In this document: positions 1 through 34,096 of the stretch, piece after piece
Layout of the letters: the number at the start of each line of letters is the position of its first letter
Numbering within the stretch: position 1 is the stretch's first letter
From: a virus
Length of the DNA: 34,096 nucleotides
Virus record (IMG/VR): IMGVR_UViG_3300032104_000068
Strand: one strand, 5' to 3'
Notes under the pieces: generated by a model
The model's database searches: none
What the model saw: only the letters and a program-made list of their open reading frames with translations
Told to the model about the DNA's origin: nothing
Program-made: the position numbers and the translations under genes

Positions 1-56
1 TGGGCTTGGGGCGTCCTTTGAATTTGGGCTTGGGGCGTCCTTTGAATTTGGGCTTT
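1..56. repeat. 24-bp tandem repeat (2 copies at this end), same array as 33957..34096
   Basis: The unit gggcttggggcgtcctttgaattt is repeated. Positions 1-52 are identical to 34045-34096. Confidence 0.95.
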
Positions 57-91
57 CCTTTCGGTGCCTGCTTTGCGGACGGCTTGGTCAT
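1..91 (-). CDS. terS: terminase small subunit, 5' end (gene wraps across the window junction and continues at 34096..33500)
   Basis: The ATG is at 91..89 with AAGG 9 nt upstream. It reads MTKPSAKQAPKG followed by KPKFKGRP repeats down to position 1. The frame joins the 33500..34096 ORF only when the terminal overlap (1-52 = 34045-34096) is collapsed. Confidence 0.8.
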   Translation of the reverse strand, partial: MTKPSAKQAPKGKPKFKGRPKPKFKGRPKP

Positions 92-99
92 GTTAGACC

Positions 100-474
100 T
101 TAAATGCGGTCGTGTGACTTCGGCAACTGGAACGCACCAACGGTGACGCCGACATCGGCGCTATAGGTAACAAGCACATCGCCATTGCCATCGTTCCATT
201 CGCCCGGCTCAAACGGGCCGAACATAAAAAGTTTGTCAATCGACACAGATTTTGCCACGGCGGGTTTGGTCATCTTGCCCTTACCGGCAACAGATTGTGT
301 GGCATTTTGCGGGGCGATGTTGACGGTCCTGGCGGCGGCATTAATATTCTTGACAATCAAAACCGTGTTGCCATCGTTTTTGAATTTATCGCCCGCCGCT
401 GTCGCGGCCACCAATCCGGCGCTATCCAGTTCAATGCCATCTTCCAGGCTTTTGTTAATGCTCAATTGGGTCAT
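100..474 (-). CDS. conserved small phage protein immediately upstream of terS, function unknown
   Basis: ORF 100..579 was trimmed to the ATG at 474, which is preceded by GAAAGAAGGA, giving 124 aa (MTQLSINKSLEDG...). The stop lies 8 nt before the terS ATG. Composition (FKNDGNTVLIVKN...VLVTYSADVGVTVGAF) resembles small beta-rich proteins often found beside terminase genes. Confidence 0.7.
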   Translation of the reverse strand: MTQLSINKSLEDGIELDSAGLVAATAAGDKFKNDGNTVLIVKNINAAARTVNIAPQNATQSVAGKGKMTKPAVAKSVSIDKLFMFGPFEPGEWNDGNGDVLVTYSADVGVTVGAFQLPKSHDRI

Positions 475-546
475 GGCCAATCCTTCTTTCGGTTCAGGTT
501 GACCCAACCTTATACCGGAAAGGCTGGAATTGCAAAAGGGGGAAAG

Positions 547-762
547 AAAAACTGTCGTTTCCCGACAAATCTTTTTCAAAAAGTTATGGCCGGTGCCAAC
601 ACATGGGCGGCGAAAGATGCCAAATCCTCCAAATTAAAACTGTCATTTTCTGACACTTTTTTTTCAGAAAGTTTCGGGCCTTGCCCAAGGTATGTGAATT
701 GAGGGACCTCTAACTTTTCAAATTAAAACTGTCGTTTTCTGACATTTATTTTTAGAAAAGTT
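547..762. promoter_or_regulatory. three ~45-bp direct repeats (547-585, 629-673, 718-762), each with a 5-5-5 dyad
   Basis: The dyads are TGTCG-TTTCC-CGACA (553-567), TGTCA-TTTTC-TGACA (641-655) and TGTCG-TTTTC-TGACA (730-744). Each is flanked by aaaac on one side and a T-run plus (a/g)aaagtt on the other. Dyad centres are 88 and 89 bp apart. Confidence 0.8.
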
Positions 763-1054
763 ACGCACTACCATTTAATAATTTCCTGACAATCTTTTGG
801 GGGAAGGGTACGCCCAGGCGTCTATAGATTTTGGCCTTCTTTTTAATCATGGTCATCACCTTGGGCGGGACCGACCCTTCTGAAATAAGATTGCGGTTAT
901 AGTTCTGGCGCGTCATCCTGACCACCGTCAGGGTTGACCAGTAAAGCAACCGCACCAGTTTCTTTCCGCGTGTTGGCAACAGAATAAAAGTTTTAAAACC
1001 AGTCCCGACACGGGGACATTCATCCTGAAGCTGAAGCCTTGCCATCATTGTCAT
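761..1054 (-). CDS. hypothetical protein (97 aa)
   Basis: ORF 761..1225 was trimmed to the ATG at 1054, preceded by GAAAGGAAATGGG. It reads MTMMARLQLQDECPRVGTGFKTF... with no family recognised. Confidence 0.6.
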   Translation of the reverse strand: MTMMARLQLQDECPRVGTGFKTFILLPTRGKKLVRLLYWSTLTVVRMTRQNYNRNLISEGSVPPKVMTMIKKKAKIYRRLGVPFPQKIVRKLLNGSA

Positions 1055-2560: not shown

Positions 2561-2902
2561 TCAATGTTTTTTATCACTCAGGCTGGTCGTGCCCATGCCT
2601 ACTGTTTCAATGCTTTCAACGCCAAGAAAATCCTTTATATCCAGTTGTTCAGCCATCGTTTCAGCCTGGACCATGACGGTCATCATCAGCAAATTAAGAT
2701 AAGCCGCTTGTCGCTGTTCTGGTTTGATATAAGCCAAATGCAAGCCGGTGAAAAAAGTGCCTGCATTTGCAATCATTTCCAGATAGGCCAGATGGTTTCC
2801 TGTCGCCAGTTCAAACATCTTGCGCCCAATATCATTGAAGCATGATTGTGCCCCGGTGATTTGCTCAGGGGTTAGCCTGACCGATGTTTCAAGTTCTGTC
2901 AT
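2561..2902 (-). CDS. hypothetical protein (113 aa)
   Basis: The ATG at 2902 overlaps the upstream stop (ATGA). The composition looks helical. Confidence 0.65.
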   Translation of the reverse strand: MTELETSVRLTPEQITGAQSCFNDIGRKMFELATGNHLAYLEMIANAGTFFTGLHLAYIKPEQRQAAYLNLLMMTVMVQAETMAEQLDIKDFLGVESIETVGMGTTSLSDKKH

Positions 2903-3384
2903 TTCCCATCACTCCGCCAGCCGCAATCCGGGCAAATGGCAATCGCTACCTGGCCACCCGTTCCCGGCATGGACGGGCATGTCAGGCGTCCTGCACCACA
3001 TTCCGGGCACAAGGCGTCCAGCCATTCCTTCAACGTAGCGTCAGCAAGGTCCTGGTCATTGAAATACCGCCATTCTTCTTTGAGCGGGTCATAAATCGCA
3101 AAAATATTAGCGTCATATTCTTCCACCACAGCAAGCTGAAGTACTTTATCCCGTTCCGCATTATCGGTCAAAAGAAACAAATCTTCCGTGGTGTATTCCC
3201 ATTCTTCCGGGTCGTAAAAATATAGCCCGTTGGGCGGGGTGATTTCACCCGGTTCAAGTTCAGCATCAAGAATTTCCCTGATGCCATCCGCCAATTGATT
3301 TGTCGGCGGATTGTCGATGTCATCGAAGGGAAAAGTTTCCAATAAATCCCTGATTGCTTTTTCTTTTTCCGCGAATGTTTTCAT
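2899..3384 (-). CDS. strongly acidic protein with C-terminal zinc-ribbon (161 aa)
   Basis: The ATG at 3384 follows GAAAGGAAAAACATC. I count 36 D/E against about 13 K/R. The C-terminus has CPECG...CPDCG. Confidence 0.7.
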   Translation of the reverse strand: MKTFAEKEKAIRDLLETFPFDDIDNPPTNQLADGIREILDAELEPGEITPPNGLYFYDPEEWEYTTEDLFLLTDNAERDKVLQLAVVEEYDANIFAIYDPLKEEWRYFNDQDLADATLKEWLDALCPECGAGRLTCPSMPGTGGQVAIAICPDCGWRSDGK

Positions 3385-3546
3385 GATGTTTTTCCTTTCA
3401 AATAAATGGCGGCGCGTCATCCTTAGACCAGATACAATGCGCCTTTCGGCTCCCCGCCCCGGTCATGTTTAACCCCGCATCAAAAGGGCAGGATGACTTG
3501 TGTGCGGACCGCCGCCGTGGCCCGGCAGGAGATTGGCGGGGCATAT

Positions 3547-4266: not shown

Positions 4267-4814
4267 GTCAATCTAATCCATTTTAAAAGCTGAGCATCAG
4301 CCGGGACACGATTATTACCACGGGCCAGCGGATGCCGTGGGGAAAGGTCATTGTTTGTCCCCAGACACCAAAGGTCATGACCGGCCAGGTTCAATTTGCG
4401 GGCCACTTCCAAGCCGCGCGGGTCATGAAATTCAGCGCCCCAGGCAATTACCACCTTGGCCACATTCCCGGCTTCCTCAAGAATAAAGCCGTCATTCAAT
4501 TCAATCAACCTGGCCCGTGACCGTTCCGAAAGATTGCTGATGTGGTCCTTCATGATGCGCGGGTCCGGGTTGATGAACGGCCAAAGGTTCATTGCTACGT
4601 GCGCGGCAAAGCCATGATGGTTCCAGATGCGTTTGCATTTTTCGGTAGTCATGTCGGTTTCCTTGACGGACCCGGCCAGGCTTGGGTTCATCATGATACA
4701 CAGCACAGCCGGACCTTCGCCCCAACGATGTTCCAGGCGGAAGCGATAGCGGCCACGGGCTGAAAATATATTTAGGCGGCGCTGGATTAAATCAGATGTT
4801 TTGACCAGTTTCAT
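4263..4814 (-). CDS. DUF1643-like protein (183 aa)
   Basis: RYRFRLEHRWGEGPAVLCIMMNPSLA ... VIAWGA ... LGTNNDLSPRHPL matches my recollection of the DUF1643 pattern. The ATGA overlap links it to the upstream gene. Confidence 0.6.
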   Translation of the reverse strand: MKLVKTSDLIQRRLNIFSARGRYRFRLEHRWGEGPAVLCIMMNPSLAGSVKETDMTTEKCKRIWNHHGFAAHVAMNLWPFINPDPRIMKDHISNLSERSRARLIELNDGFILEEAGNVAKVVIAWGAEFHDPRGLEVARKLNLAGHDLWCLGTNNDLSPRHPLARGNNRVPADAQLLKWIRLT

Positions 4815-5152
4815 TTTTCCTTACCATCACCAGTTGCCTTGATGACCGTGGGCAAAGCGACCGCTCCCTTCAATCCCTTTATCGCCAGGAAATATGCGCT
4901 GGCCGCTTCCTGAAGTTTCTTGTGCAGGGCATCAGCAATAAACATTCTTTTCATCGGGTTGATTTTAATTTGCCCGGCCTCATAGCGCCTGACCGTCCTG
5001 GCCGCTTGCATGCCTTTCAATTCAAGCACCCTGGCGAATTTGTCAGCGGAAAGTCCAAGCGCCTTGCGGCAAGCCTTGATATCATCCCCGCTCAAGTCCG
5101 GTAAAGATGAAAGGTGACCGATGATTTTTTGCAGGTCTTTTTTTTCAGACAC
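4811..5152 (-). CDS. XRE-family helix-turn-helix regulator (113 aa)
   Basis: It starts with GTG at 5152. LSGDDIKACRKALGLSADKFARVLELKGMQAARTVRRYEAGQ is a typical HTH_3-like segment. Confidence 0.65.
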   Translation of the reverse strand: MSEKKDLQKIIGHLSSLPDLSGDDIKACRKALGLSADKFARVLELKGMQAARTVRRYEAGQIKINPMKRMFIADALHKKLQEAASAYFLAIKGLKGAVALPTVIKATGDGKEK

Positions 5153-6144: not shown

Positions 6145-6320
6145 GCCAATCTTGCGTTCAATATCATCCAGGCCAGCGCCGCTTCTTTTATTGGACCGGC
6201 ATCTTCCCCAATCAGGGTGTGAATTGACACCCCGTCTTTTTTGGCTTGGGCCAATTTTTGTTGTGCTTCTTTGGCGCAAACATGCACCAGCCCCTGCAAC
6301 CCCACAACCATGTCACACAC
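6132..6320 (-). CDS. hypothetical protein (59-62 aa)
   Basis: The start is either GTG 6320 or ATG 6311, just after the HTH gene stop. Its stop overlaps ATG 6135 (ATGA). Confidence 0.5.
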   Translation of the reverse strand: MCDMVVGLQGLVHVCAKEAQQKLAQAKKDGVSIHTLIGEDAGPIKEAALAWMILNARLAERP

Positions 6321-6501
6321 TCAGGATGTCATCGGCGGTGACTTTACCCCCGGTGGCGTCCACAAGCCGCCTGAGCGCGTTGCGGGACAGCGGGCCACCG
6401 TTCACGGCACGGCTGACTTGCTGGTCACTGAAATCGTGCTTCCGGGCAAATGCGGCCTGGTTCCCGTTAAAATTCTTTTCAATAAATTCTTTCATTTTCA
6501 T
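6313..6501 (-). CDS. Cro/YdaS-like HTH DNA-binding protein (62 aa)
   Basis: GNQAAFARKHDFSDQQVSRAVNGG...ATGGKVTADDIL matches the Cro/YdaS-type pattern. The RBS is AAAGGAAAA. Confidence 0.65.
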   Translation of the reverse strand: MKMKEFIEKNFNGNQAAFARKHDFSDQQVSRAVNGGPLSRNALRRLVDATGGKVTADDILSV

Positions 6502-6512
6502 GCGCTTTTCCT

Positions 6513-6704
6513 TTAATAGTCTTCCAGGTTTTTAAATTCATATGACCTTAGTTTTCGGGTTTTATTTTTTTCATTTTCAATTCCCCAATCCGGGTCAAAT
6601 CTTTTTCTGATATTCTTGGCGGCATTGCCGAAACTCTTAAGCTGTGCCAGACGCTTAAGTTGTCTAATGGTTGGCTGGCCCGCTTTGGTTTTACCTGTTG
6701 ACAT
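6513..6704 (-). CDS. basic small protein, first gene of the leftward arm (63 aa)
   Basis: The ATG is at 6704 (MSTGKTKAGQPTIRQLKRLAQLK...). I preferred it over the overlapping ORF 6548..6751 on composition and on coupling to the next gene. Confidence 0.5.
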   Translation of the reverse strand: MSTGKTKAGQPTIRQLKRLAQLKSFGNAAKNIRKRFDPDWGIENEKNKTRKLRSYEFKNLEDY

Positions 6705-6745
6705 AATCTGGAAATCGGTTTATTCCATATTCCAGAAACTGTCAA
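6698..6745. promoter_or_regulatory. 48-bp nested dyad in the 54-bp divergent intergenic region (candidate operator and overlapping promoters)
   Basis: TTGACA(6698-6703)-N4-CTGGAA(6708-6713)-N16-TTCCAG(6730-6735)-N4-TGTCAA(6740-6745). Each TTGACA is a perfect -35 hexamer pointing inward. The hexamers 17 nt downstream are poor -10 matches (TATTCC and TAAACC). Confidence 0.5.
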
Positions 6746-6758
6746 CCGCAAACATGGG

Positions 6759-7830: not shown

Positions 7831-7860
7831 TAGAAAGGAATAGAAAGGAATAGAAAGGAA
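7831..7860 (+). repeat. 3 x tagaaaggaa tandem repeat (triplicated Shine-Dalgarno)
   Basis: Three perfect copies sit at 7831-7840, 7841-7850 and 7851-7860. Only the last is correctly spaced from the ATG at 7866. Confidence 0.95.
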
Positions 7861-8540: not shown

Positions 8541-9380
8541 ATGAATAAGATGAACACCACACCTGAAAAAGTTGATGCCCCCGCACCGGCTGAAGCCCCC
8601 GGTACCAAGAAAGAAAACCTGAAGAAAGGAAAGCCCCAGGCCAGGTTGAAAGCCGGGGGGAAAGTTGAAGCTATTGTTCCACACACCATTGAACAGGTTT
8701 ACCGATTTGCGGATGCTGTTATAACCGCCTGCCTTGCCCCTGATAGTTTTGAGAATGACCGGAACAAAGTTGCAATGGCCATCCTGAAGGGCTTGGAAGT
8801 TGGGCTGATGCCGATGACTGCCCTGGCCAATATTTATATTGTCAAAGCACGGCCAACAATTTGGGGGGACGCGGCAATGGCCCTAGTTCATGATACCGGC
8901 GAGTTGGAATTTATGAATGACCACTATGAAGGGTCATTTGAAAAGGGGGATTTGATGTGTTCCGTCACCATGAAGCGGCGCACGGTTGACAACTCAATCA
9001 CCCGGACCTTTTCAATGGCGGACGCAACCCACGCCGGATTGATTAACCGGGACGGCACTCCCAAGGCTGGCAAGTTTGCCTGGAATTATATCAACCGGAT
9101 GCTATTCAACCGTGCCCGCGCCTGGTGCGTCCGTGACCTTTTTGCTGATGTGCTTTGCGGGCTGGCTATCAGGGAAGAACTGGAAGGCATCCCTGAAAAG
9201 AAAACCGTCAAGGACACAAAATTTCTTGGTGATGTTATCGAGGGTGAGGCTAATGAAATTCCCGCTGGCGATGCTGAGACCAAAACATCCGAAGGTGACA
9301 CCTGGGTATCACCTGAACCCGAAAAGGACCTGATTGAGGAAGTCCTTGAGGATGATGAATTGCCAGAAAAAAGAGGATGA
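8541..9380 (+). CDS. Redbeta/RecT-type single-strand annealing protein (279 aa)
   Basis: GLEVGLMPMTALANIYIV...IWGDAAMALV and NRMLFNRARAWCVRDLFADVLCGL resemble the conserved RecT/Redbeta blocks. It is paired with an exonuclease gene. The start may be ATG 8541 or 8550. Confidence 0.6.
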   Translation: MNKMNTTPEKVDAPAPAEAPGTKKENLKKGKPQARLKAGGKVEAIVPHTIEQVYRFADAVITACLAPDSFENDRNKVAMAILKGLEVGLMPMTALANIYIVKARPTIWGDAAMALVHDTGELEFMNDHYEGSFEKGDLMCSVTMKRRTVDNSITRTFSMADATHAGLINRDGTPKAGKFAWNYINRMLFNRARAWCVRDLFADVLCGLAIREELEGIPEKKTVKDTKFLGDVIEGEANEIPAGDAETKTSEGDTWVSPEPEKDLIEEVLEDDELPEKRG

Positions 9381-9727
9381 AAAACATGGACCGGAAAAAA
9401 ACTGCACAGGTCAGGAAGCACTTGTCTGAAGGCTATGCCCTGACCCCGCTTGAAGCCGCCAGCCAATTTCATACCATGCGGCTGTCAGCCATTGTGGAAG
9501 ACCTGCGCTTGAAGGGTTTGAAAATTTATGCGACCAAGGCCAGGTTTCCAGTAACCGGGGCTTATTTTGCGGTGTATTATATCCCGGCGCACTTCATGGA
9601 CAGACACATGGAATATTTCAAGGGCCGGTTTGGCACGGGCCACGTGCCGGAATTGACGCAATGGCTGAAAGATAAGGGTTTGGATTATGCTGGCCATTAT
9701 CCCAACAGCTTTGGTTTGACACCGTAA
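9377..9727 (+). CDS. winged-helix/HTH DNA-binding protein (116 aa)
   Basis: HLSEGYALTPLEAASQFHTMRLSAIVEDLRLKGLKI matches the short HTH-domain family (L..G..lT..eA...f...RL.arI.dLr..G..I). The start overlaps the upstream stop (ATGA). Confidence 0.55.
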   Translation: MKNMDRKKTAQVRKHLSEGYALTPLEAASQFHTMRLSAIVEDLRLKGLKIYATKARFPVTGAYFAVYYIPAHFMDRHMEYFKGRFGTGHVPELTQWLKDKGLDYAGHYPNSFGLTP

Positions 9728-11032: not shown

Positions 11033-11068
11033 GAAGGGGCTGGCGGTAAAGCCAGCCCCTTCTTCTTG
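11033..11068 (+). terminator. rho-independent terminator of the plus-strand arm
   Basis: Arms gaaggggctggc (11033-11044) and gccagccccttc (11051-11062) enclose a 6-nt loop. The sequence ttcttgtg follows. Confidence 0.6.
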
Positions 11069-12254: not shown

Positions 12255-12299
12255 GACTTTTCCTTCAAATAATTACTGGCGGACCTTCCGCTATTTTTA

Positions 12300-29908: not shown

Positions 29909-30183
29909 GGCCTTTCCTTTGTTATTACTCTCATCATCTTCATAATTTATATTTAAAGGGTTGATGATGTTGGTGCTGTGGATAACTAATGTCGCAGTAC
30001 GGCCAGCTACAACATTTTGCGTCCAAACTTTAAACGCACCACTATATTTAGGTGTTTCAAACCAAACACGCCAGGTTGATAACTCTGTGAATTGTTTGTG
30101 ATTAACCGGGATAATTTTTTAAAAATCAATTTATCCACAGCCAATACACAGGTTTTCCACAGGGTTATGCTCATGGTCTTTCC
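29909..30183 (-). repeat. copy A of the ~270-bp module: DnaA-box cluster plus AT-rich tract (paralog of 5863..6144)
   Basis: TTATCCACA is at 30131-30139 (+) and 29977-29985 (-). TTTTCCACA is at 30153-30161 (+). CACAG cores sit at 30136, 30147 and 30158, an 11-bp phasing. An AT-rich tract spans about 29925-29960. Only a 55-codon ORF (30007..30174) is present. Confidence 0.8.
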
Positions 30184-30200
30184 TTATCTTGATTTGCAAA

Positions 30201-30218
30201 ATGTTTCACGTGAAACAT
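30201..30218. other. 18-bp perfect palindrome atgtttcacgtgaaacat
   Basis: Read directly from the sequence. It lies 39 nt downstream of the portal-MuF stop. On the minus strand it is followed by TTTG. Confidence 0.9.
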
Positions 30219-30256
30219 CCCGCCTTTCTTTAATGTTTTCAATGTCTTATCCTTTA

Positions 30257-32278
30257 TCAGCCCTGCACAATCGCCAGCACATCAGCGTGCATGGCCCGGA
30301 AGGACCGCCTGAAGGCGCGGCGCAACTGGCGTTCAAACTGTTGCCGCCTGTTTTCAAACACCCGCCACACTTCAGCACGCTTTTCTTCTGTATCCAGACG
30401 GGCAAGATTGGCCGGGACCACAGGGACCACGCCGCACTGGCAGTTAATGTCCTCCCCGGGCACCCCGAATTGTCCCGGCCCTGGGGCGCTGGCCCCCCCG
30501 GCACTGACAAAATTGTTTTCAACCGGAATGGTCACGCCGGATAATGCAACATGCGTGTCCCGCACCGGCGACCCGCCGACCGTAATCAGCCACATTTTCT
30601 TTTTCACCCCGGCCTTGACCATCCCTTCCTGCACCCCAAAGCTGGACGCTCTGACGGTTTCGGTCCGGGCGATGGTGCCCGCCCGTGAAATGCTGGCGTC
30701 AAAGACCTGTGTGACCCGTGTTGAAAGCGCCGGAAGACTGTCCCCCGCCGCCAGTCCTTCAGCCAGGGTGCGCCGCAAACCTTCCTTGATGGTGCCGTTG
30801 ACGCCGACCACACGGGTGCTGGAATAGTCCCGCAAGAACCGCACCACAGCCGGGTCATTCAAATCAAAAACAATATCCAGGTTCAAGGACCGGAACAGGT
30901 CATCCCCGAACGCGGCCACGGTATCGGATACAATCCCGACCGTTGCCGGGCCTGGGCTGTTAGCGTCAATCGCGGCAAGAATATCATCAATGTCATCGGG
31001 TGCCTTGGTGATTTCCTTGAACGTGCCATCTATCAGCACCGGGCCATTTTTGCTTTCCCTGAAAAATAACTGTGGCGCACGCAATCCAGCAAGTTCTTCC
31101 AGCCCAGGGGTTGCCGGATTGCCTGTGATGTTCAGATTGAACGGCACCGGGAACACGTTCAGCCCCTCAAGCACTTCCTCACCGGCGGCCTTGCGGACCT
31201 CATTCAGCCTGAAGGCTTCTGGCCGTGATTTCATCAACTCAATTTTGGTCTTCATGTCTTCCTTGACCGGGCTGATGAACCCCAATTTGGCGCGTGGGTC
31301 CTGCTCGTGCAATTCACGTTCAAAGACCGCACGCATTACAATCAGTTTGGGCAGGACCACATGCTTGGATAAAAAGAACTCGGCGGCTTCGATCGTGGCC
31401 CGGTTGCTGTTCTCAAGGATGCCCAGGGCTTCGGGCGGGAAGCCATAGACCTGAAGCACCGCGTCCCGTGACATCCCCCTGATGTCCTTCATCGCCATCT
31501 TGCGGAAGTCCTTGGCAAATTCCTTCACGTCAATCTTGCCGCCAGTGACAAAGAACGGCACCGATGCCCGCGCCACGCCATGCAGTTTTTGAAGCCATTT
31601 TTTCTCAAGCCGTTCAGCCTGGTCCTTGCCAAACCCGCTTTCACTGTCCGCCGCTGAAATCAGCAAATCAGGCCGGGCGCTGTTGCGGAAAAAGTTCTTG
31701 ATATAGCGTGTGGCATAGCTATCAGTTTCAAGGTCATCCGCCAGCGCCGCGCCGCGTCCCTTGCCTGGGCCGTAGGGATTGGCCGGGTCTGGATTGACAA
31801 CCGCAATGATGTCTTCAGGCTCAAAGCTGAACATGGTGGCCCCGATACGGACCTGCCAGGTGCCCTTGCCAAGTATCGGCCGCTTCAGGATTTCGTGGGT
31901 CGGAATAGGCCAGAAGGAAATTGTGTCGCCCCGGAAATTGCGTTCCTTCAGGAAATGAAATTCATCCAAAATACAAAAATATTTCCACGCCAGCAACCAG
32001 TTTTGAAGGCCAGGAAAAACTTCATTGCCGTTATTCATGGCATTGGCAAAGGGATGGTCCTCAATTTCCTCACCATCGACTGTCACTAACCAGGGAACCG
32101 CCGCACCGATTTCAGCGGTCTTGTTGACCACGGCGTTGAGCCATTTGTATCGGTGATAACCCAGGACAAGTTGACGTTGGGTGAAAATTGTCGGGGTGGT
32201 GTTATCGCCGACTGGCGAAAAAAAGAAGTTGCCTTGCGCTTCACTCCCAAAAAGTCCGCCGAATATTTTTTTCAACAT
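30257..32278 (-). CDS. portal protein fused to a MuF / SPP1-gp7-like minor head protein domain (673 aa)
   Basis: ATG 32278 overlaps the terL TGA, and the ORF-track TTG at 32293 is an alternative start. The first ~400 aa are portal-like. The C-terminal ARTETVRASSFG...W..T.....VRDTH..L.G......F......PG....INCQC is the Phage_Mu_F signature. Confidence 0.85.
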   Translation of the reverse strand: MLKKIFGGLFGSEAQGNFFFSPVGDNTTPTIFTQRQLVLGYHRYKWLNAVVNKTAEIGAAVPWLVTVDGEEIEDHPFANAMNNGNEVFPGLQNWLLAWKYFCILDEFHFLKERNFRGDTISFWPIPTHEILKRPILGKGTWQVRIGATMFSFEPEDIIAVVNPDPANPYGPGKGRGAALADDLETDSYATRYIKNFFRNSARPDLLISAADSESGFGKDQAERLEKKWLQKLHGVARASVPFFVTGGKIDVKEFAKDFRKMAMKDIRGMSRDAVLQVYGFPPEALGILENSNRATIEAAEFFLSKHVVLPKLIVMRAVFERELHEQDPRAKLGFISPVKEDMKTKIELMKSRPEAFRLNEVRKAAGEEVLEGLNVFPVPFNLNITGNPATPGLEELAGLRAPQLFFRESKNGPVLIDGTFKEITKAPDDIDDILAAIDANSPGPATVGIVSDTVAAFGDDLFRSLNLDIVFDLNDPAVVRFLRDYSSTRVVGVNGTIKEGLRRTLAEGLAAGDSLPALSTRVTQVFDASISRAGTIARTETVRASSFGVQEGMVKAGVKKKMWLITVGGSPVRDTHVALSGVTIPVENNFVSAGGASAPGPGQFGVPGEDINCQCGVVPVVPANLARLDTEEKRAEVWRVFENRRQQFERQLRRAFRRSFRAMHADVLAIVQG

Positions 32279-33549
32279 CAGATTAAATCCCAATCGCCTT
32301 GTTTGCCACTAAGGACCAATTCAGTGATTGCCCACACCAGCGCATCCATTCTGTCCGGGCTTTTTTTCGTGACCCCAGGGACATATGAAATAAGCTGGTC
32401 TTCAAGCCCTGACAAGGTGCCGATATGGTGGACCCTGCCCAATTCATACAAGGCGGCGACTGGTTCAGCGCGGGTCATTTTCCCTTTTGTGGCATGAACG
32501 GATTTATAACTAACATTATTTTGAATGTTCCGCAAATTGGTTTCCACCAGGTCGCCCCCCTGGTTGACCTCAGCCACCACCCGGTCAGCCAGAAAAATAT
32601 TGTAGGCCCTAAGCACCTTATTGCCCCATGTCAAGGGTGAACCCTGCAAGGAACAATCCTGCAAAATGAACGCATGGCGTCCGGTGCCCTGGCCATGTGC
32701 CCCGGCCACAATGATGCCGCACTCGTCAGCATCCGGGCCGGACGTGACCGGCGGGTCAACCGCCACAACAATCCGGTCCATTTCCTTGGGCGGGTTCAGC
32801 ATCCGGGCCTTGTCAATATCCTCCCAGGTCCACAATGCACCTTCAACAATCCGCTGGAACTCACCGGCAAAGAACCGGGCGCGGGCGGCACGCGGCAGGC
32901 TTTTTAGAATTTCAATAAATTCGGGGGTCAGGTTTGCCAGATTATCAGGCGGGTTAATCTGCATTTTCCCATATAGATGCGGGTTCCTTAAGGGTTCTTT
33001 TGTCCCTGGTAAAAGGCCCTCAAAGAAAATTGAATAAATCCAGTGTTTAATTGACGGCGGATTGCAGTCAAACAGCATTTTCAAATCCAAGCCAACATTT
33101 TCCGCCAGCCTGGTCATAACAATTTCAGCCGCCATCCAGGTGATTTCGGAAACCTCGTTCAGAAAAATCGTGCTGTATTCATTGCCCAATATTTTTTCAA
33201 CCCGCTCTTTATCGTCCAGGCCCATGAACCAAATTTGCGACCCGTTGGACAGTTCGGCAAACCAGTCCGTCTTATTGACGTGATAGGGCACGCCAGGAAA
33301 GCACAGCGTCATCACTTTGGGAAAGGTATCATAAACGATTGATTGCTTGATATGGTTGAAATGATGCCGTGCCACCAGGTGCCGGGACTTGACGGCGGCG
33401 GCGCGGATTACAATGTCCCGCAAATGAAGGAAAGTTTTACCGGACCGTGACCCGCCGTAAAGCAGGATGAACATATACCTGGCAATCAAGCGGGTGGCAT
33501 CAGTCTGCTTTATAGTTTTTTGAAATCGTGGCGGCATCATCGGCATCAA
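32278..33549 (-). CDS. terL: terminase large subunit (423 aa)
   Basis: It has Walker A YGGSRSGKT, an ATPase block IFLNEVSE, and a C-terminal nuclease-like region VAVDPP...ECGIIVAG...AEVNQGGD. It lies between terS and the portal gene. Confidence 0.9.
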   Translation of the reverse strand: MMPMMPPRFQKTIKQTDATRLIARYMFILLYGGSRSGKTFLHLRDIVIRAAAVKSRHLVARHHFNHIKQSIVYDTFPKVMTLCFPGVPYHVNKTDWFAELSNGSQIWFMGLDDKERVEKILGNEYSTIFLNEVSEITWMAAEIVMTRLAENVGLDLKMLFDCNPPSIKHWIYSIFFEGLLPGTKEPLRNPHLYGKMQINPPDNLANLTPEFIEILKSLPRAARARFFAGEFQRIVEGALWTWEDIDKARMLNPPKEMDRIVVAVDPPVTSGPDADECGIIVAGAHGQGTGRHAFILQDCSLQGSPLTWGNKVLRAYNIFLADRVVAEVNQGGDLVETNLRNIQNNVSYKSVHATKGKMTRAEPVAALYELGRVHHIGTLSGLEDQLISYVPGVTKKSPDRMDALVWAITELVLSGKQGDWDLI

Positions 33550-34096
33550 TCACCATTTTGATTTCCAGTTGACCATCCAAATCAATTTTGTCGCCAAAAA
33601 TTTTGGGCAGGATTTTGGATGTCAACCATTTCCGGGCATCAATTCGCAACCTGGACCGCTGGACACGCTCTTGGTCAAACCGGATTATTGTTTTGCCGCT
33701 GGCGGTTTTAAAAATAGCATAATCCTGCCGCCCGTCATCGGCAATTTCATTAATTTCATCAGCCATCGCATGTGCCCCCAACTCGCGCGCGTGTGCGTAT
33801 CGGACGTAAAAGCCCTTTGGCCGGTCATCAATATACCATCCCCTGATTGTTGTTGCAGGTGGAAGTTTCGTGTCATCCCGGCAAATAGTTTTAAGCCCGT
33901 GACCATCAGCAAGGCGGGCCAGTATCTTCCGTGCAATCGCCGGGGTGTACTTGGTCGGGCGTCCTTTGGATTTGGGCTTGGGGCGTCCTTTGGATTTGGG
34001 CTTGGGGCGTCCTTTGGATTTGGGCTTGGGGCGTCCTTTGAATTTGGGCTTGGGGCGTCCTTTGAATTTGGGCTTGGGGCGTCCTTTGAATTTGGG
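33500..34096 (-). CDS. terS: terminase small subunit, 3' portion (5' end at 91..1 after the wrap)
   Basis: ...KSKGRPTKYTPAIARKILARLADGHGLKTICRDDTKLPPATTIRGW...YAHARELGAHAMADEI...RLRIDARKWLTSKILPKIFGDK is a classical small-terminase pattern. The frame is open to the window end. Confidence 0.85.
   Translation of the reverse strand, partial: PKFKGRPKPKFKGRPKPKFKGRPKPKSKGRPKPKSKGRPKPKSKGRPTKYTPAIARKILARLADGHGLKTICRDDTKLPPATTIRGWYIDDRPKGFYVRYAHARELGAHAMADEINEIADDGRQDYAIFKTASGKTIIRFDQERVQRSRLRIDARKWLTSKILPKIFGDKIDLDGQLEIKMVIDADDAATISKNYKAD
33957..34096. repeat. 24-bp tandem repeat, 6 copies (3 'ggattt' type then 3 'gaattt' type)
   Basis: The gggcgtcc core recurs at 33957, 33981, 34005, 34029, 34053 and 34077. 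On the minus strand it encodes KPKSKGRP and KPKFKGRP. Confidence 0.95.

Follow-up and report, generated by a model that had tools for sequence, protein, structure and literature searches.

A non-coding gap at the head of the packaging genes of a virus holds three copies of a dyad-bearing unit, and the question raised by this locus is what kind of factor acts on them. The DNA that was analyzed, hereafter the window, is the 34,096-nt IMG/VR record IMGVR_UViG_3300032104_000068, a contig that is circular via a 52-nt assembly overlap. Our analysis supports a view in which the units, judging by their sequence, are most likely ordinary control sites that a protein binds. We tentatively favor, with a probability of roughly 0.4, a model whereby a dimeric regulator would bind these sites, bend the DNA, and gate transcription into the late operon.

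Three repeat units under selection

A repeat search returned one family of three 55-nt units on the minus strand: unit C at 543–597, the promoter-proximal copy and copy 1 of the original prediction; unit B at 631–685, the middle copy (75% identical); and unit A at 720–774, the distal copy (67%). The prediction of three direct repeats was correct in number and orientation, but the unit measures about 55 rather than 45 nt, reaching GGCC-rich bases past the AAAGTT sequence. The dyads read exactly as proposed, TGTCG-TTTCC-CGACA in unit C (553–567, center 560), TGTCA-TTTTC-TGACA in unit B (641–655, center 648), and TGTCG-TTTTC-TGACA in unit A (730–744, center 737); each is followed by the expected T-run (572–576, 657–664, and 749–753) and then by AAAGTT (580–585, 668–673, and 757–762), and the start-to-start spacing is 88 and 89 bp, as claimed for the dyad centers. 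The non-coding gap, 475–760, is also present and extends from the stop codon of a 97-aa ORF (761–763) to the ATG of a 124-aa ORF (474); AACTTT of unit A overlaps this TAA stop codon. The unit is directional and on the sense (minus) strand reads AACTTT-N12-TGTC-R-GRAAA-Y-GACAGTTTT-NN-TTT. Its flanks are asymmetric, the C before TGTC being conserved and its mirror partner not, with AACTTT on one side only. A sequence-level test located A/T tracts of at least 4 nt at −10.5, 0, +12.5 to +14, and +20 from every dyad center, in agreement with the suggestion that each dyad comes with an A/T tract; the tracts are phased about each dyad at −10.5, 0, and about +13.

The motif CTGTCNTTTYCYGACA has three exact matches, all inside the gap at 475–760; with up to two mismatches allowed, 0.19 matches are expected per shuffled genome, and the observed count was reached in 0 of 100 shuffles. 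In the whole 34-kb circular genome, 553, 641, and 730 are the only places with an exact TGTC-N7-GACA, and the sole near-match to the dyad (7/8) lies at 6736–6754 in the early promoter region. Across the three units 34 of the 55 core columns are invariant, while the 33–34-nt spacers between them are no more similar to one another than shuffled sequence (p = 0.16–0.78), which together place the cores under selection in all three copies. The three repeats are real and under selection, and the array, as read from these patterns, appears to be a triplicated ~88-bp module of which selection has kept the 45–55-bp cores only. Neutral remnants of a tandem duplication would not keep 34/55 core columns while their spacers randomize. 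As for origin iterons or a partition site, repeated dyads in A/T-rich DNA would suit these as well as remnants, and so would the finding that the window has no recognizable replication initiator or integrase, but no initiator gene is adjacent to the array and a far better origin/partition candidate lies at 29909–30256. That spacer, with two perfect DnaA boxes, one 8/9 box, and a perfect parS palindrome, looks oriC-like and is more striking than the array. We regard all three of these explanations, taken together, as very doubtful.

The array is flanked on one side by a separately promoted 97-aa gene and on the other by the late operon (p124, Sf6-type terS, terL, portal, and onward to endolysin), a gene order that bears out its predicted position at the head of the packaging/late operon. 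The 97-aa ORF (761–1054, minus strand), which adjoins the array upstream and is preceded by promoter-like TTCAAA-16-TATACT at 1107–1080, encodes a predicted SH3-like barrel with two helices, and remote homologs of this protein are located within early gene clusters. Identifying the 97-aa protein as a known regulator was considered and rejected, as Pfam and PHROG gave no match and its PDB neighbors were non-significant. The 124-aa ORF p124 (100–474, minus strand) is the first gene of the late operon and encodes an all-beta virion-type protein; a role as a DNA-binding packaging accessory was rejected as well, p124 being confidently all-beta with its usual place in structural modules. The terS ORF (minus strand) spans the junction of the circular genome, with its 5′ end at 1–91 and the remainder at 33500–34044, and encodes an Sf6-type small terminase of 211 aa in total.

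The conserved box and the hairpins

The original prediction placed a possible promoter, TTGCAA-N15-TATAAG, on the minus strand at 535–509. This sequence is present, but TTGCAA (530–535, minus strand, with a 15-nt spacer to TATAAG) is absent from the output of a sigma-70 scan and is not conserved in L027, the only syntenic relative, which has a homolog of the 97-aa gene, a spacer, and a p124 homolog in the same order. What the two share is the 16-nt box CGGTATAAGGTTGGGT (502–517, minus strand), which holds the −10-like TATAAG (514–509) without a conserved −35. The box occurs once in the window and is found as an identical 16-mer at 2632–2647 of L027, though the flanking proteins are only 39–68% identical. 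Because TATAAG stands in this identical box without a conserved −35, a late promoter that depends on an activator and has the proximal dyad near −58 was a reasonable proposal, the dyad center lying at −57/−58 from a start that is predicted and unmapped. Inside the units themselves, no sigma-70 promoter passed the scan. A leader stem-loop (464–508, minus strand), in which GGUUGGGUCA (508–499) pairs with UGACCCAAUU (473–464), encloses the Shine–Dalgarno sequence and AUG of the 124-aa gene (−16.4 kcal/mol, z = −2.4), and the L027 leader has the same fold (−16.7 kcal/mol, z = −3.8).

Upstream of the box, no sequence homology to L027 was detectable (p = 0.28). Absence of the repeats from close relatives with the same gene order had been named as evidence against the original prediction, and in this one instance they are indeed absent: where the proximal unit C sits, L027 has a strong intrinsic terminator, one GC-rich hairpin of −20.5 kcal/mol, in addition to which there is a short GGCC hairpin that carries a T9 run. 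The L027 terminator ends 36–37 nt upstream of TATAAG and the unit C hairpin 37–38 nt. A strong terminator at the same place would fit a reading of the units as tandem plain intrinsic, possibly bidirectional, terminators that insulate the late operon from the 97-aa transcript in a factor-free manner. Each unit has the layout of A-tract, hairpin, and T-tract in both orientations, and a simple terminator scan flagged unit C, with a score just above zero. However, the sense-strand hairpins of units A, B, and C have only −2.5, −4.6, and −6.6 kcal/mol, and their terminator scores are −66, −52, and +2.4, so that unit C alone reaches a borderline value. In contrast, stems of −8 to −26 kcal/mol and scores of +11 to +29 were obtained for the reference terminators, which lie at 11033–11062 and 12277–12293 of this phage and in L027. 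U-tracts are present in the units, but a stable G+C-rich hairpin is not; moreover, a terminator has no need for conservation of the primary sequence of stem, loop, and AACTTT. The unit hairpins are too weak for plain terminators, and we consider this explanation very improbable.

The same hairpins might instead be recognized by a protein on the sense transcript, in nut-like antitermination or in attenuation of entry into the late operon, which we judge to be rather unlikely. Each unit would then be boxB-like, comprising a 5-bp stem, a G-N-R-N-A pentaloop, and a U-run. The boxB loop of lambda nutR is GAAAA, and the loops on the transcribed strand here are GAAAA, GAAAA, and GGAAA (GAAAA in unit B). 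Each hairpin has an A-rich spacer upstream and GUUUU(A/U)(A/C)UUU downstream, the closing pair shows a compensatory A-U to G-C change between units B and C, the unit has a direction, and the L027 terminator lies at an equivalent distance from the box. Tandem RNA elements are additive and position-independent, a property that would account for the retention of three cores despite the decay of the copied boxes. The SH3/KOW-like 97-aa protein is conceivably a candidate factor; its model is good (pLDDT 81), and the weak structural neighbors of the predicted barrel include KOW-type ribosomal proteins, OapB, and MazF, but its structural matches in the PDB are all non-significant (E ≥ 0.07). The hairpins themselves also argue against recognition as RNA: units B and C form the 5-bp stem with a GNRA-like pentaloop, but in unit A an A.C mismatch disrupts the closing pair, leaving a stem of 4 bp. 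RNAalifold on the three units gave no covariation support (covariation term +1.33), folding of the whole spacer yielded only modest z-scores, Rfam had no match, the boxA-like CGCTCTTTA is absent, and no genuine ORF with an arginine-rich, N-like motif was found. A more specific version, in which a triple boxB-like loading/attenuation site serves a nut-/Nun-like late switch with the 97-aa protein as one candidate factor, is improbable. If true, it would place a nut-/Nun-like late-gene switch in a phage that is unrelated to lambdoids and whose nearest cultured TerL relatives are cyanophages.

Candidate proteins for the dyads

The half-site bases TGTC and GACA are invariant while position 5 is R/Y and mixed within unit A, with G on one side and A on the other, a pattern that fits half-site recognition better than base-pairing. 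In our model of the array, each core would be a double-stranded DNA site for a sequence-specific, two-fold symmetric (dimeric) protein that would recognize TGTCR and YGACA through consecutive major grooves, 10 bp center to center, with bending of the DNA across the narrow minor grooves that the A/T tracts form at 0 and about ±11–13 bp. With the sites placed where the 97-aa gene gives way to the late operon, and with the conserved −35-less box as the presumed start signal of that operon, the bound protein would act as a gate on the amount of transcription reaching the late genes. At about −58 from the predicted start, the proximal site would be positioned for recruitment of RNA polymerase, while the two distal sites may support cooperative occupancy and/or block read-through from upstream. 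Here, we infer the binding of a protein, its action on the DNA, and the direction of its effect.

In agreement with a dimeric regulator, exact dyads occur in this gap only and the phage encodes small helix-turn-helix proteins (HTH_3 at 4811–5152, a Cro/YdaS-like ORF at 6313–6501, and a winged HTH at 9377–9727). Against it, no second promoter in the genome has the dyad, and L027 has a terminator in place of such sites. For an activator, sites at about −146 and −235 would be unusual, and a spacing of 88–89 bp corresponds to about 8.4 helical turns, which puts neighboring sites on different faces of the DNA. The GNRA-like pentaloop and the sense-strand U-run are found in 3/3 copies, and a DNA site needs neither. 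LexA (CTGT-N8-ACAG), CRP, NtcA, sigma-54, and Bacteroidota promoter motifs were compared by eye and rejected because spacing or bases misfit.

Database searches returned few relatives, and diverged close relatives able to show conservation of the repeats were not among them. The phage collection gave no DNA match and the plasmid collection no match, p124 and the 97-aa ORF are both absent from IMG/VR, and a protein search with p124 returned only itself; in two other contigs with p124, the spacer is identical. TerL relatives in viral and metagenome collections (≤48% identity) are without the motif or a comparable array, and in the cultured cyanophage Ssp-JY42 (TerL 49.5% identity) the spacer is G+C-rich and without repeats. 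The pattern AACTTT-N11-13-TGTC-N7-GACAGTTTT gave single, coding, or scattered matches only in viral and genome collections, and none of the 52 matches to a 15-mer of the conserved box lies beside homologs of these genes. For AAAACTGTCNTTTYCYGACA, public collections contain 10 single matches representing four distinct sequences, which by a rough estimate is about what chance would give. Among these matches is one in L002 that precedes a terS, itself unrelated, by 40 bp.

If the units are sites for a regulator, they would show where an uncultured phage lineage with almost no sequenced relatives switches from early to late, and the 16-bp dyad would serve as a handle to fish out the regulator. The array belongs to a routine class of phage cis-elements and involves no new principle.

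A sigma-E-type promoter has the form GGAACTT-N16-TCAAA, making it possible to read the sense strand of the units, AACTT-N15-TCAGA, as three tandem ECF/sigma-E-type promoters. Both matching blocks are among the invariant blocks of the unit, and tandem promoters would be additive and position-independent. Yet the spacer falls short by one base, there is no GG, TCGGG replaces TCAGA in unit C, Pfam and PHROG scans detected no sigma factor, and the invariant GACAGTTTT is left unexplained. Because this motif is one among many tried by eye, chance resemblance is a real risk, and we give tandem promoters of this type hardly any credence.

Alternatively, the array may function in packaging. An Sf6-type TerS would bind the three bent units via its helix-turn-helix and six AT-hook-like arms, forming a complex that would start headful packaging and, by analogy to SPP1 TerS, may repress or gate late transcription. 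TerS matches Sf6 gp1 (Pfam PF20901, Sf6_terminase, E = 6e-30; PDB 3HEF/4DYC, E about 1e-12), and its N-terminus, which had been described as AT-hook-like, contains six KGRPKPK[F/S] repeats where its relatives have a single GRP. TerL has Terminase_3/6C domains and the contig is circular, as expected of circularly permuted DNA; the array lies in phased A/T-tract DNA 450–680 bp upstream of terS, and SPP1 provides a precedent (PMC6316719). Since pac sites co-vary with TerS, absence of the repeats from L027 would be unsurprising. By contrast, inverted half-sites 10 bp apart suit a dimer, whereas a ring-shaped TerS would read direct repeats or an asymmetric site. In addition, known pac sites are within terS or immediately next to it, but here a structural gene, p124 (474–100), intervenes; an IHF consensus is absent, distant TerL/TerS relatives have no comparable array, and A/T tracts are frequent in all spacers of the phage. 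Binding by TerS is in our estimation unlikely. Should the units be bound by TerS, this would be one of the rare instances where the DNA target of an Sf6-type small terminase is readable from sequence, linking a tandem AT-hook arm to phased A/T tracts.

Comparison with known systems

In the late promoters of P2, 186, and P4, sites for the activators Ogr/Delta/B, TGT-N12-ACA, lie near −55. Similarly, a TGT...ACA dyad lies upstream of a putative −35-less late promoter here, its proximal copy at about −58 from the predicted start; but P2-type systems have one copy at each of several late promoters, whereas here three copies 88–89 bp apart share a single spacer. The analogy to P2 Ogr drawn in the original prediction does not hold, as the dyad is TGT-N9-ACA rather than N12 and is absent from other promoters, and no Ogr/Delta zinc-finger protein was detected among the ORFs scanned with Pfam and PHROG; the sole Cys4 protein (2899–3420) matches DUF5795, under the family cut-off.

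The sense RNA resembles lambda nut in its 5-bp stem, GAAAA/GGAAA pentaloop, preceding A-rich spacer, and directionality. However, the upstream block is AACTTTYY rather than boxA CGCTCTTTA, there is no N-like arginine-rich protein, one of the three copies has a broken closing pair, and lambda nut is present in one copy near an early promoter, whereas here three copies stand where the late operon begins.

The two packaging precedents that had been proposed, lambda cosB and SPP1 pac, fail on the TerS family or on position. Lambda cosB (R3, R2, and R1 with the IHF site I1) likewise has three repeats upstream of the terminase genes, but its R sites are 16 bp long and lie within about 120 bp, whereas the units here are 55 nt long and 88 bp apart, and the IHF motif WATCAANNNNTTR is absent from 475–800. 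Moreover, cosB directly abuts terS while the 124-aa ORF separates array and terS here, TerS is of the Sf6 type (PF20901, 3HEF/4DYC) and not Nu1-like, and the terminase appears to be of the headful type, not the cos type. In SPP1, pac overlaps late promoters, and TerS binds pacL and pacR and represses its own synthesis (PMC6316719); the minor-groove drug distamycin interferes with this binding (PMC6316719), a parallel to the AT-hook-like arm of TerS here. Like SPP1 pacL/pacC/pacR, the array is an A-tract-rich region of about 270–290 bp with repeated boxes that is located at the head of the packaging operon and overlaps late-promoter signals, and at the sequence level repeated boxes in bent A-tract DNA are found in both. 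The boxes of SPP1 are short, directly repeated, and extend into the coding sequence of terS, whereas inverted-repeat dyads lie 450–680 bp upstream here; with the array at 543–774 and the terS start at 91, there is no overlap with the ribosome-binding site or 5′ end of terS, and TerS belongs to the Sf6 family.

Finally, we note that the corresponding boundary in L027 has the same gene order, the identical 16-nt box, and a hairpin with a T-rich tail 36–38 nt upstream of TATAAG. Where L027 has one strong terminator, three weak units whose sequence is conserved are found in the window.

The repeat array at the entry to the late operon

Inspection of positions 1-1500 and a repeat search reveal one family of three 55-nt direct repeats, units C (543-597), B (631-685) and A (720-774), of which C is proximal and A distal to the late genes. 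The repeats start 88 and 89 bp apart, and units B and A are 75% and 67% identical to unit C. At the heart of each lies an inverted repeat, TGTCG-TTTCC-CGACA in C (553-567), TGTCA-TTTTC-TGACA in B (641-655) and TGTCG-TTTTC-TGACA in A (730-744), and in 3/3 units the dyad is followed by a T-run and then AAAGTT; on re-reading the sequence, the dyads, T-runs and AAAGTT motifs of the original prediction are all present exactly as described. The repeats are real, and they are sited at the entry to the late operon.

All three exact matches to the core pattern CTGTCNTTTYCYGACA in the window fall inside the array; when <=2 mismatches are allowed, a shuffled genome is expected to contain 0.19 matches, and the observed count was reached in 0/100 shuffles. 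Exact TGTC-N7-GACA is absent from the window outside the three units. When the three 88-89-nt periods are aligned, 34 of the 55 core columns are invariant, whereas the 33-34-nt spacers between cores resemble one another no better than shuffled sequence does (p = 0.16, 0.51 and 0.78), so the cores are held by selection or by another homogenising force that spares the spacers.

The window ends overlap by 52 nt, giving a circular genome of 34,044 bp. Its minus strand carries, in order, an early block of small genes (among them those for an HTH_3 protein at 4811-5152, DUF1643, DUF7694 and a DUF968/HNH-like protein), a spacer of 201 bp (1055-1255) with a sigma-70-like site TTCAAA-16-TATACT at 1107-1080, a 97-aa ORF (1054-761), the 286-bp repeat-bearing spacer, the 124-aa ORF p124 (474-100), terS (start at 91, running across the circle junction), terL (33549-32278) and, downstream of it, a portal/MuF fusion followed by head and tail genes and an endolysin (12836-12300). 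A plus-strand operon encodes a RecE-like protein, a RecT-like protein and a winged HTH protein. The 1055-1255 spacer also contains three direct copies of TTTGGTTWAA (about 1243, 1215 and 1133), long T-runs, a hairpin at 1146-1163 and a DnaA-box-like TTATCCACC at 1140-1148. At 7831-7860, in the gap that separates the RecE-like gene from the plus-strand gene after it, (TAGAAAGGAA) x 3 forms a perfect tandem repeat and creates three consecutive Shine-Dalgarno-like AGGAA motifs.

Relatives and the conserved box

Relatives of this phage are very scarce. The spacer is identical in two further p124-bearing contigs, and DNA searches of phage and plasmid collections gave no match. By TerL (window 32278-33549), the best relatives reach 48-49.5% identity, and neither the motif nor a comparable array is present in those examined. 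Among cultured phages, the closest TerL proteins come from two cyanophages, Synechococcus phage Ssp-JY42 and Yong-M4-211 (49.5%), and from Pseudanabaena phages, which hints at a cyanobacterial or similarly aquatic host. Pattern scans of viral and genome collections returned single matches only, roughly at our rough estimate of chance. In an unrelated IMG/VR phage (L002, 9560-9640), AAAACTGACAAAAACTGTCATTTTCTGACAATTTTTT lies ~40 bp upstream of that phage's own non-homologous small-terminase-like gene; though similarly positioned, this match is probably due to chance.

Six remote homologues of the 97-aa protein emerged from an exhaustive HMMER search, and one of them, on contig L027 and its identical copies L028 and L029, stands in the same gene order: HNH, a 126-aa p124 paralogue, a 178-bp spacer in which TTGACA-17-TAAATT makes a good promoter, the 93-aa counterpart of the 97-aa protein (39% identity), a second spacer of 168 bp and a homologue of p124 (68% identity over 62 residues, up to the contig end). 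These three independent assemblies all terminate at the same base. Within L027 1220-2863 the 93-aa gene sits between two p124 paralogues with a similar leader on each, and an uncalled HNH endonuclease ORF (about 1220-1570) lies ahead of it. Conservation of the repeats in relatives, named as a check in the original prediction, does not extend to L027: its 168-bp spacer contains no TGTC-N7-GACA unit. In that spacer, CCCCCGGCTTCTGGCCGGGGG-TTCTTCTT instead forms a strong hairpin (-20.5 kcal/mol) ending in a T-rich tail, after which come a short GGCC hairpin, T9 and a 16-nt box. Sequence upstream of the box is not significantly similar between the two phages (p = 0.28), yet the distance from hairpin end to TATAAG is 36-37 nt in L027 versus 37-38 nt in the window (unit C).

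The box itself, CGGTATAAGGTTGGGT, contains the -10-like TATAAG and is identical in L027 and at window 517-502 (minus strand), in two otherwise diverged phages; it occurs once in the window. Its GGUUGGGU(CA) pairs with the p124 coding start UGACCCAA, enclosing the Shine-Dalgarno sequence and AUG. The resulting leader fold (window 464-517; L027 2632-2700) has energies of -16.4 and -16.7 kcal/mol (z = -2.4 and -3.8, respectively), survives a synonymous UUG/CUG difference between the two phages and may serve translational or mRNA-stability control.

Reading in the sense direction, a weakly resembling stretch that might be a degenerate copy of the box region precedes each core: ATTATTAAATGGTAGTGCGTAAC before unit A, at the 3' end of the 97-aa ORF, CACATACCTTGGGCAAGGCCCGAAAC before B and CCCATGTGTTGGCACCGGCCATAAC before C, with the intact CGGTATAAGGTTGGGTCAACCTGAAC before p124. 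The simplest history from these alignments would be a tandem triplication of a core-plus-box segment, after which all three cores but only the last box were kept. Because cores were kept and boxes lost, the core function would be one that is useful in several copies and independent of the exact distance to the gene.

An oriC-like spacer behind the portal gene

Between the portal/MuF gene and the late gene that follows, a 348-bp spacer (29909-30256) looks like a bacterial oriC with a partition site. Two of its DnaA boxes, TTATCCACA (29977-29985, minus; 30131-30139, plus), are perfect, where by our own estimate about 0.26 perfect boxes would be expected in the whole window; a third, at 30153-30161, matches at 8/9 positions. 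The spacer also contains an A/T-rich stretch and the 16-bp sequence TGTTTCACGTGAAACA (30202-30217), a perfect palindrome identical to the chromosomal ParB/Spo0J parS consensus, with a degenerate copy at 30053-30068. That the repeats themselves act in replication or partition is unlikely given this better candidate. Since no integrase or replication initiator was detected in the window, the phage could be a DnaA-dependent, ParB-segregated phage-plasmid, or the spacer a decoy for host factors. A sigma factor and an Ogr/Delta protein were likewise not detected. A search of the plasmid collection returned no DNA match to this region. In Ssp-JY42, too, the portal gene is followed by a long spacer, and that phage encodes a DnaA C-terminal-domain protein.

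DNA sites, RNA hairpins or packaging signals

The reading with the most support, at a probability of roughly 40%, is that the units are three DNA sites for a putative dimeric, DNA-bending regulator that gates late-gene transcription. The half-site bases TGTC/GACA are identical in all units (the fifth position is R/Y, and mixed within unit A), half-site centres are 10 bp apart, and A/T tracts are centred -10.5, 0 and +12.5 to +14 from each dyad centre in all three units, a geometry that points to a dimeric helix-turn-helix protein bending DNA towards itself. Bound at the three sites, such a regulator would control whether transcription enters the late operon; the start signal belonging to the late genes themselves would be the TATAAG box, which is conserved and has no -35.

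The window encodes small HTH proteins, none linkable to the dyad. The sole dyad look-alike in the window, AAACTGTCAACCGCAAACA (6736-6754), matches 7/8 dyad bases of the units and overlaps a TTGACA in the early divergent promoter region. This region (6697-6754) contains an inverted repeat of 17 nt, GTTGACATAATCTGGAA / TTCCAGAAACTGTCAAC, with TTGACA in each arm, the right arm running on as AAACTGTCAACCGCAAACA; the 8-mer AAACTGTC has 8 occurrences in the window where 0.82 would be expected. Both array-flanking genes (100-474 and 761-1054) belong to unannotated families with confident, new-looking folds. The 97-aa protein is modelled (pLDDT 81) as an SH3-like five-stranded barrel with two C-terminal helices, its structural neighbours, including Tudor, SH3, KOW-type ribosomal proteins, OapB and MazF, all being non-significant (E at least 0.07); its remote homologues lie within early gene clusters, with no spacer after the gene. 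The p124 protein is predicted with confidence (pLDDT 92.7) to be an all-beta sandwich, has no significant PDB neighbour and belongs to a family of >400 unannotated phage proteins, usually amid head and tail genes; fold and family context led us to reject it as a packaging accessory.

Read on the transcript, the units could be hairpins recognised by a protein, a reading that we rate as less probable than DNA sites. The unit is directional, every transcribed-strand stem carries a G-N-R-N-A pentaloop (GAAAA, GAAAA and GGAAA) and is followed by GUUUU(A/U)(A/C)UUU, and in L027 a terminator occupies the corresponding position; the hairpins, however, are very weak, at -2.5 (A, with an A.C mismatch), -4.6 (B) and -6.6 (C) kcal/mol. 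Scores of d'Aubenton-Carafa type, from our own re-implementation, are -66 (A), -52 (B) and +2.4 (C) versus +11 to +29 for the L027 hairpins and two terminators of the window phage. RNAalifold gives four invariant pairs plus one pair once compensated and once broken, with an unfavourable covariation term. Weak hairpins and scores rule out plain intrinsic termination as the common function of the three units, so an RNA role would need a hairpin-recognising protein; no arginine-rich N-like ORF was found in the window.

Recognition of the units by TerS for packaging, which is compatible with a transcriptional role, is in our estimate likewise less probable than DNA sites for a regulator, and marginally ahead of the RNA reading. 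TerS is a clear Sf6 gp1 homologue (PF20901, E = 6e-30; PDB 3HEF/4DYC, E about 1e-12) with six AT-hook-like KGRPKPK[F/S] copies at its N-terminus (window 1-91 and 33957-34096), for which the DNA is a tandem 24-bp repeat with 99-100% identity between copies; in Sf6-type homologues just one GRP stands ahead of the first helix. The contig break of every assembly sits in this 24-bp repeat. In SPP1, where pac and the late promoters overlap, pacL and pacR lie in bent A-tract DNA and are bound by TerS; this binding can be blocked with a minor-groove drug, and TerS also represses its own synthesis (PMC6316719). This precedent is good and the sixfold arm is striking, yet each site has two-fold symmetry, the distance to terS is 450-680 bp with a structural gene between, and the array carries no IHF consensus and has no parallel in any relative.

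The remaining readings, namely plain terminators, tandem promoters of ECF type, a replication origin and neutral relics, were rated unlikely, below the TerS and RNA readings. Of the precedents offered by the original prediction, P2 Ogr sites, lambda cosB and SPP1 pac, none has the array as a member by its membership test, and the same holds for lambda nut. The array is a new instance of a familiar type of phage cis-regulatory array.
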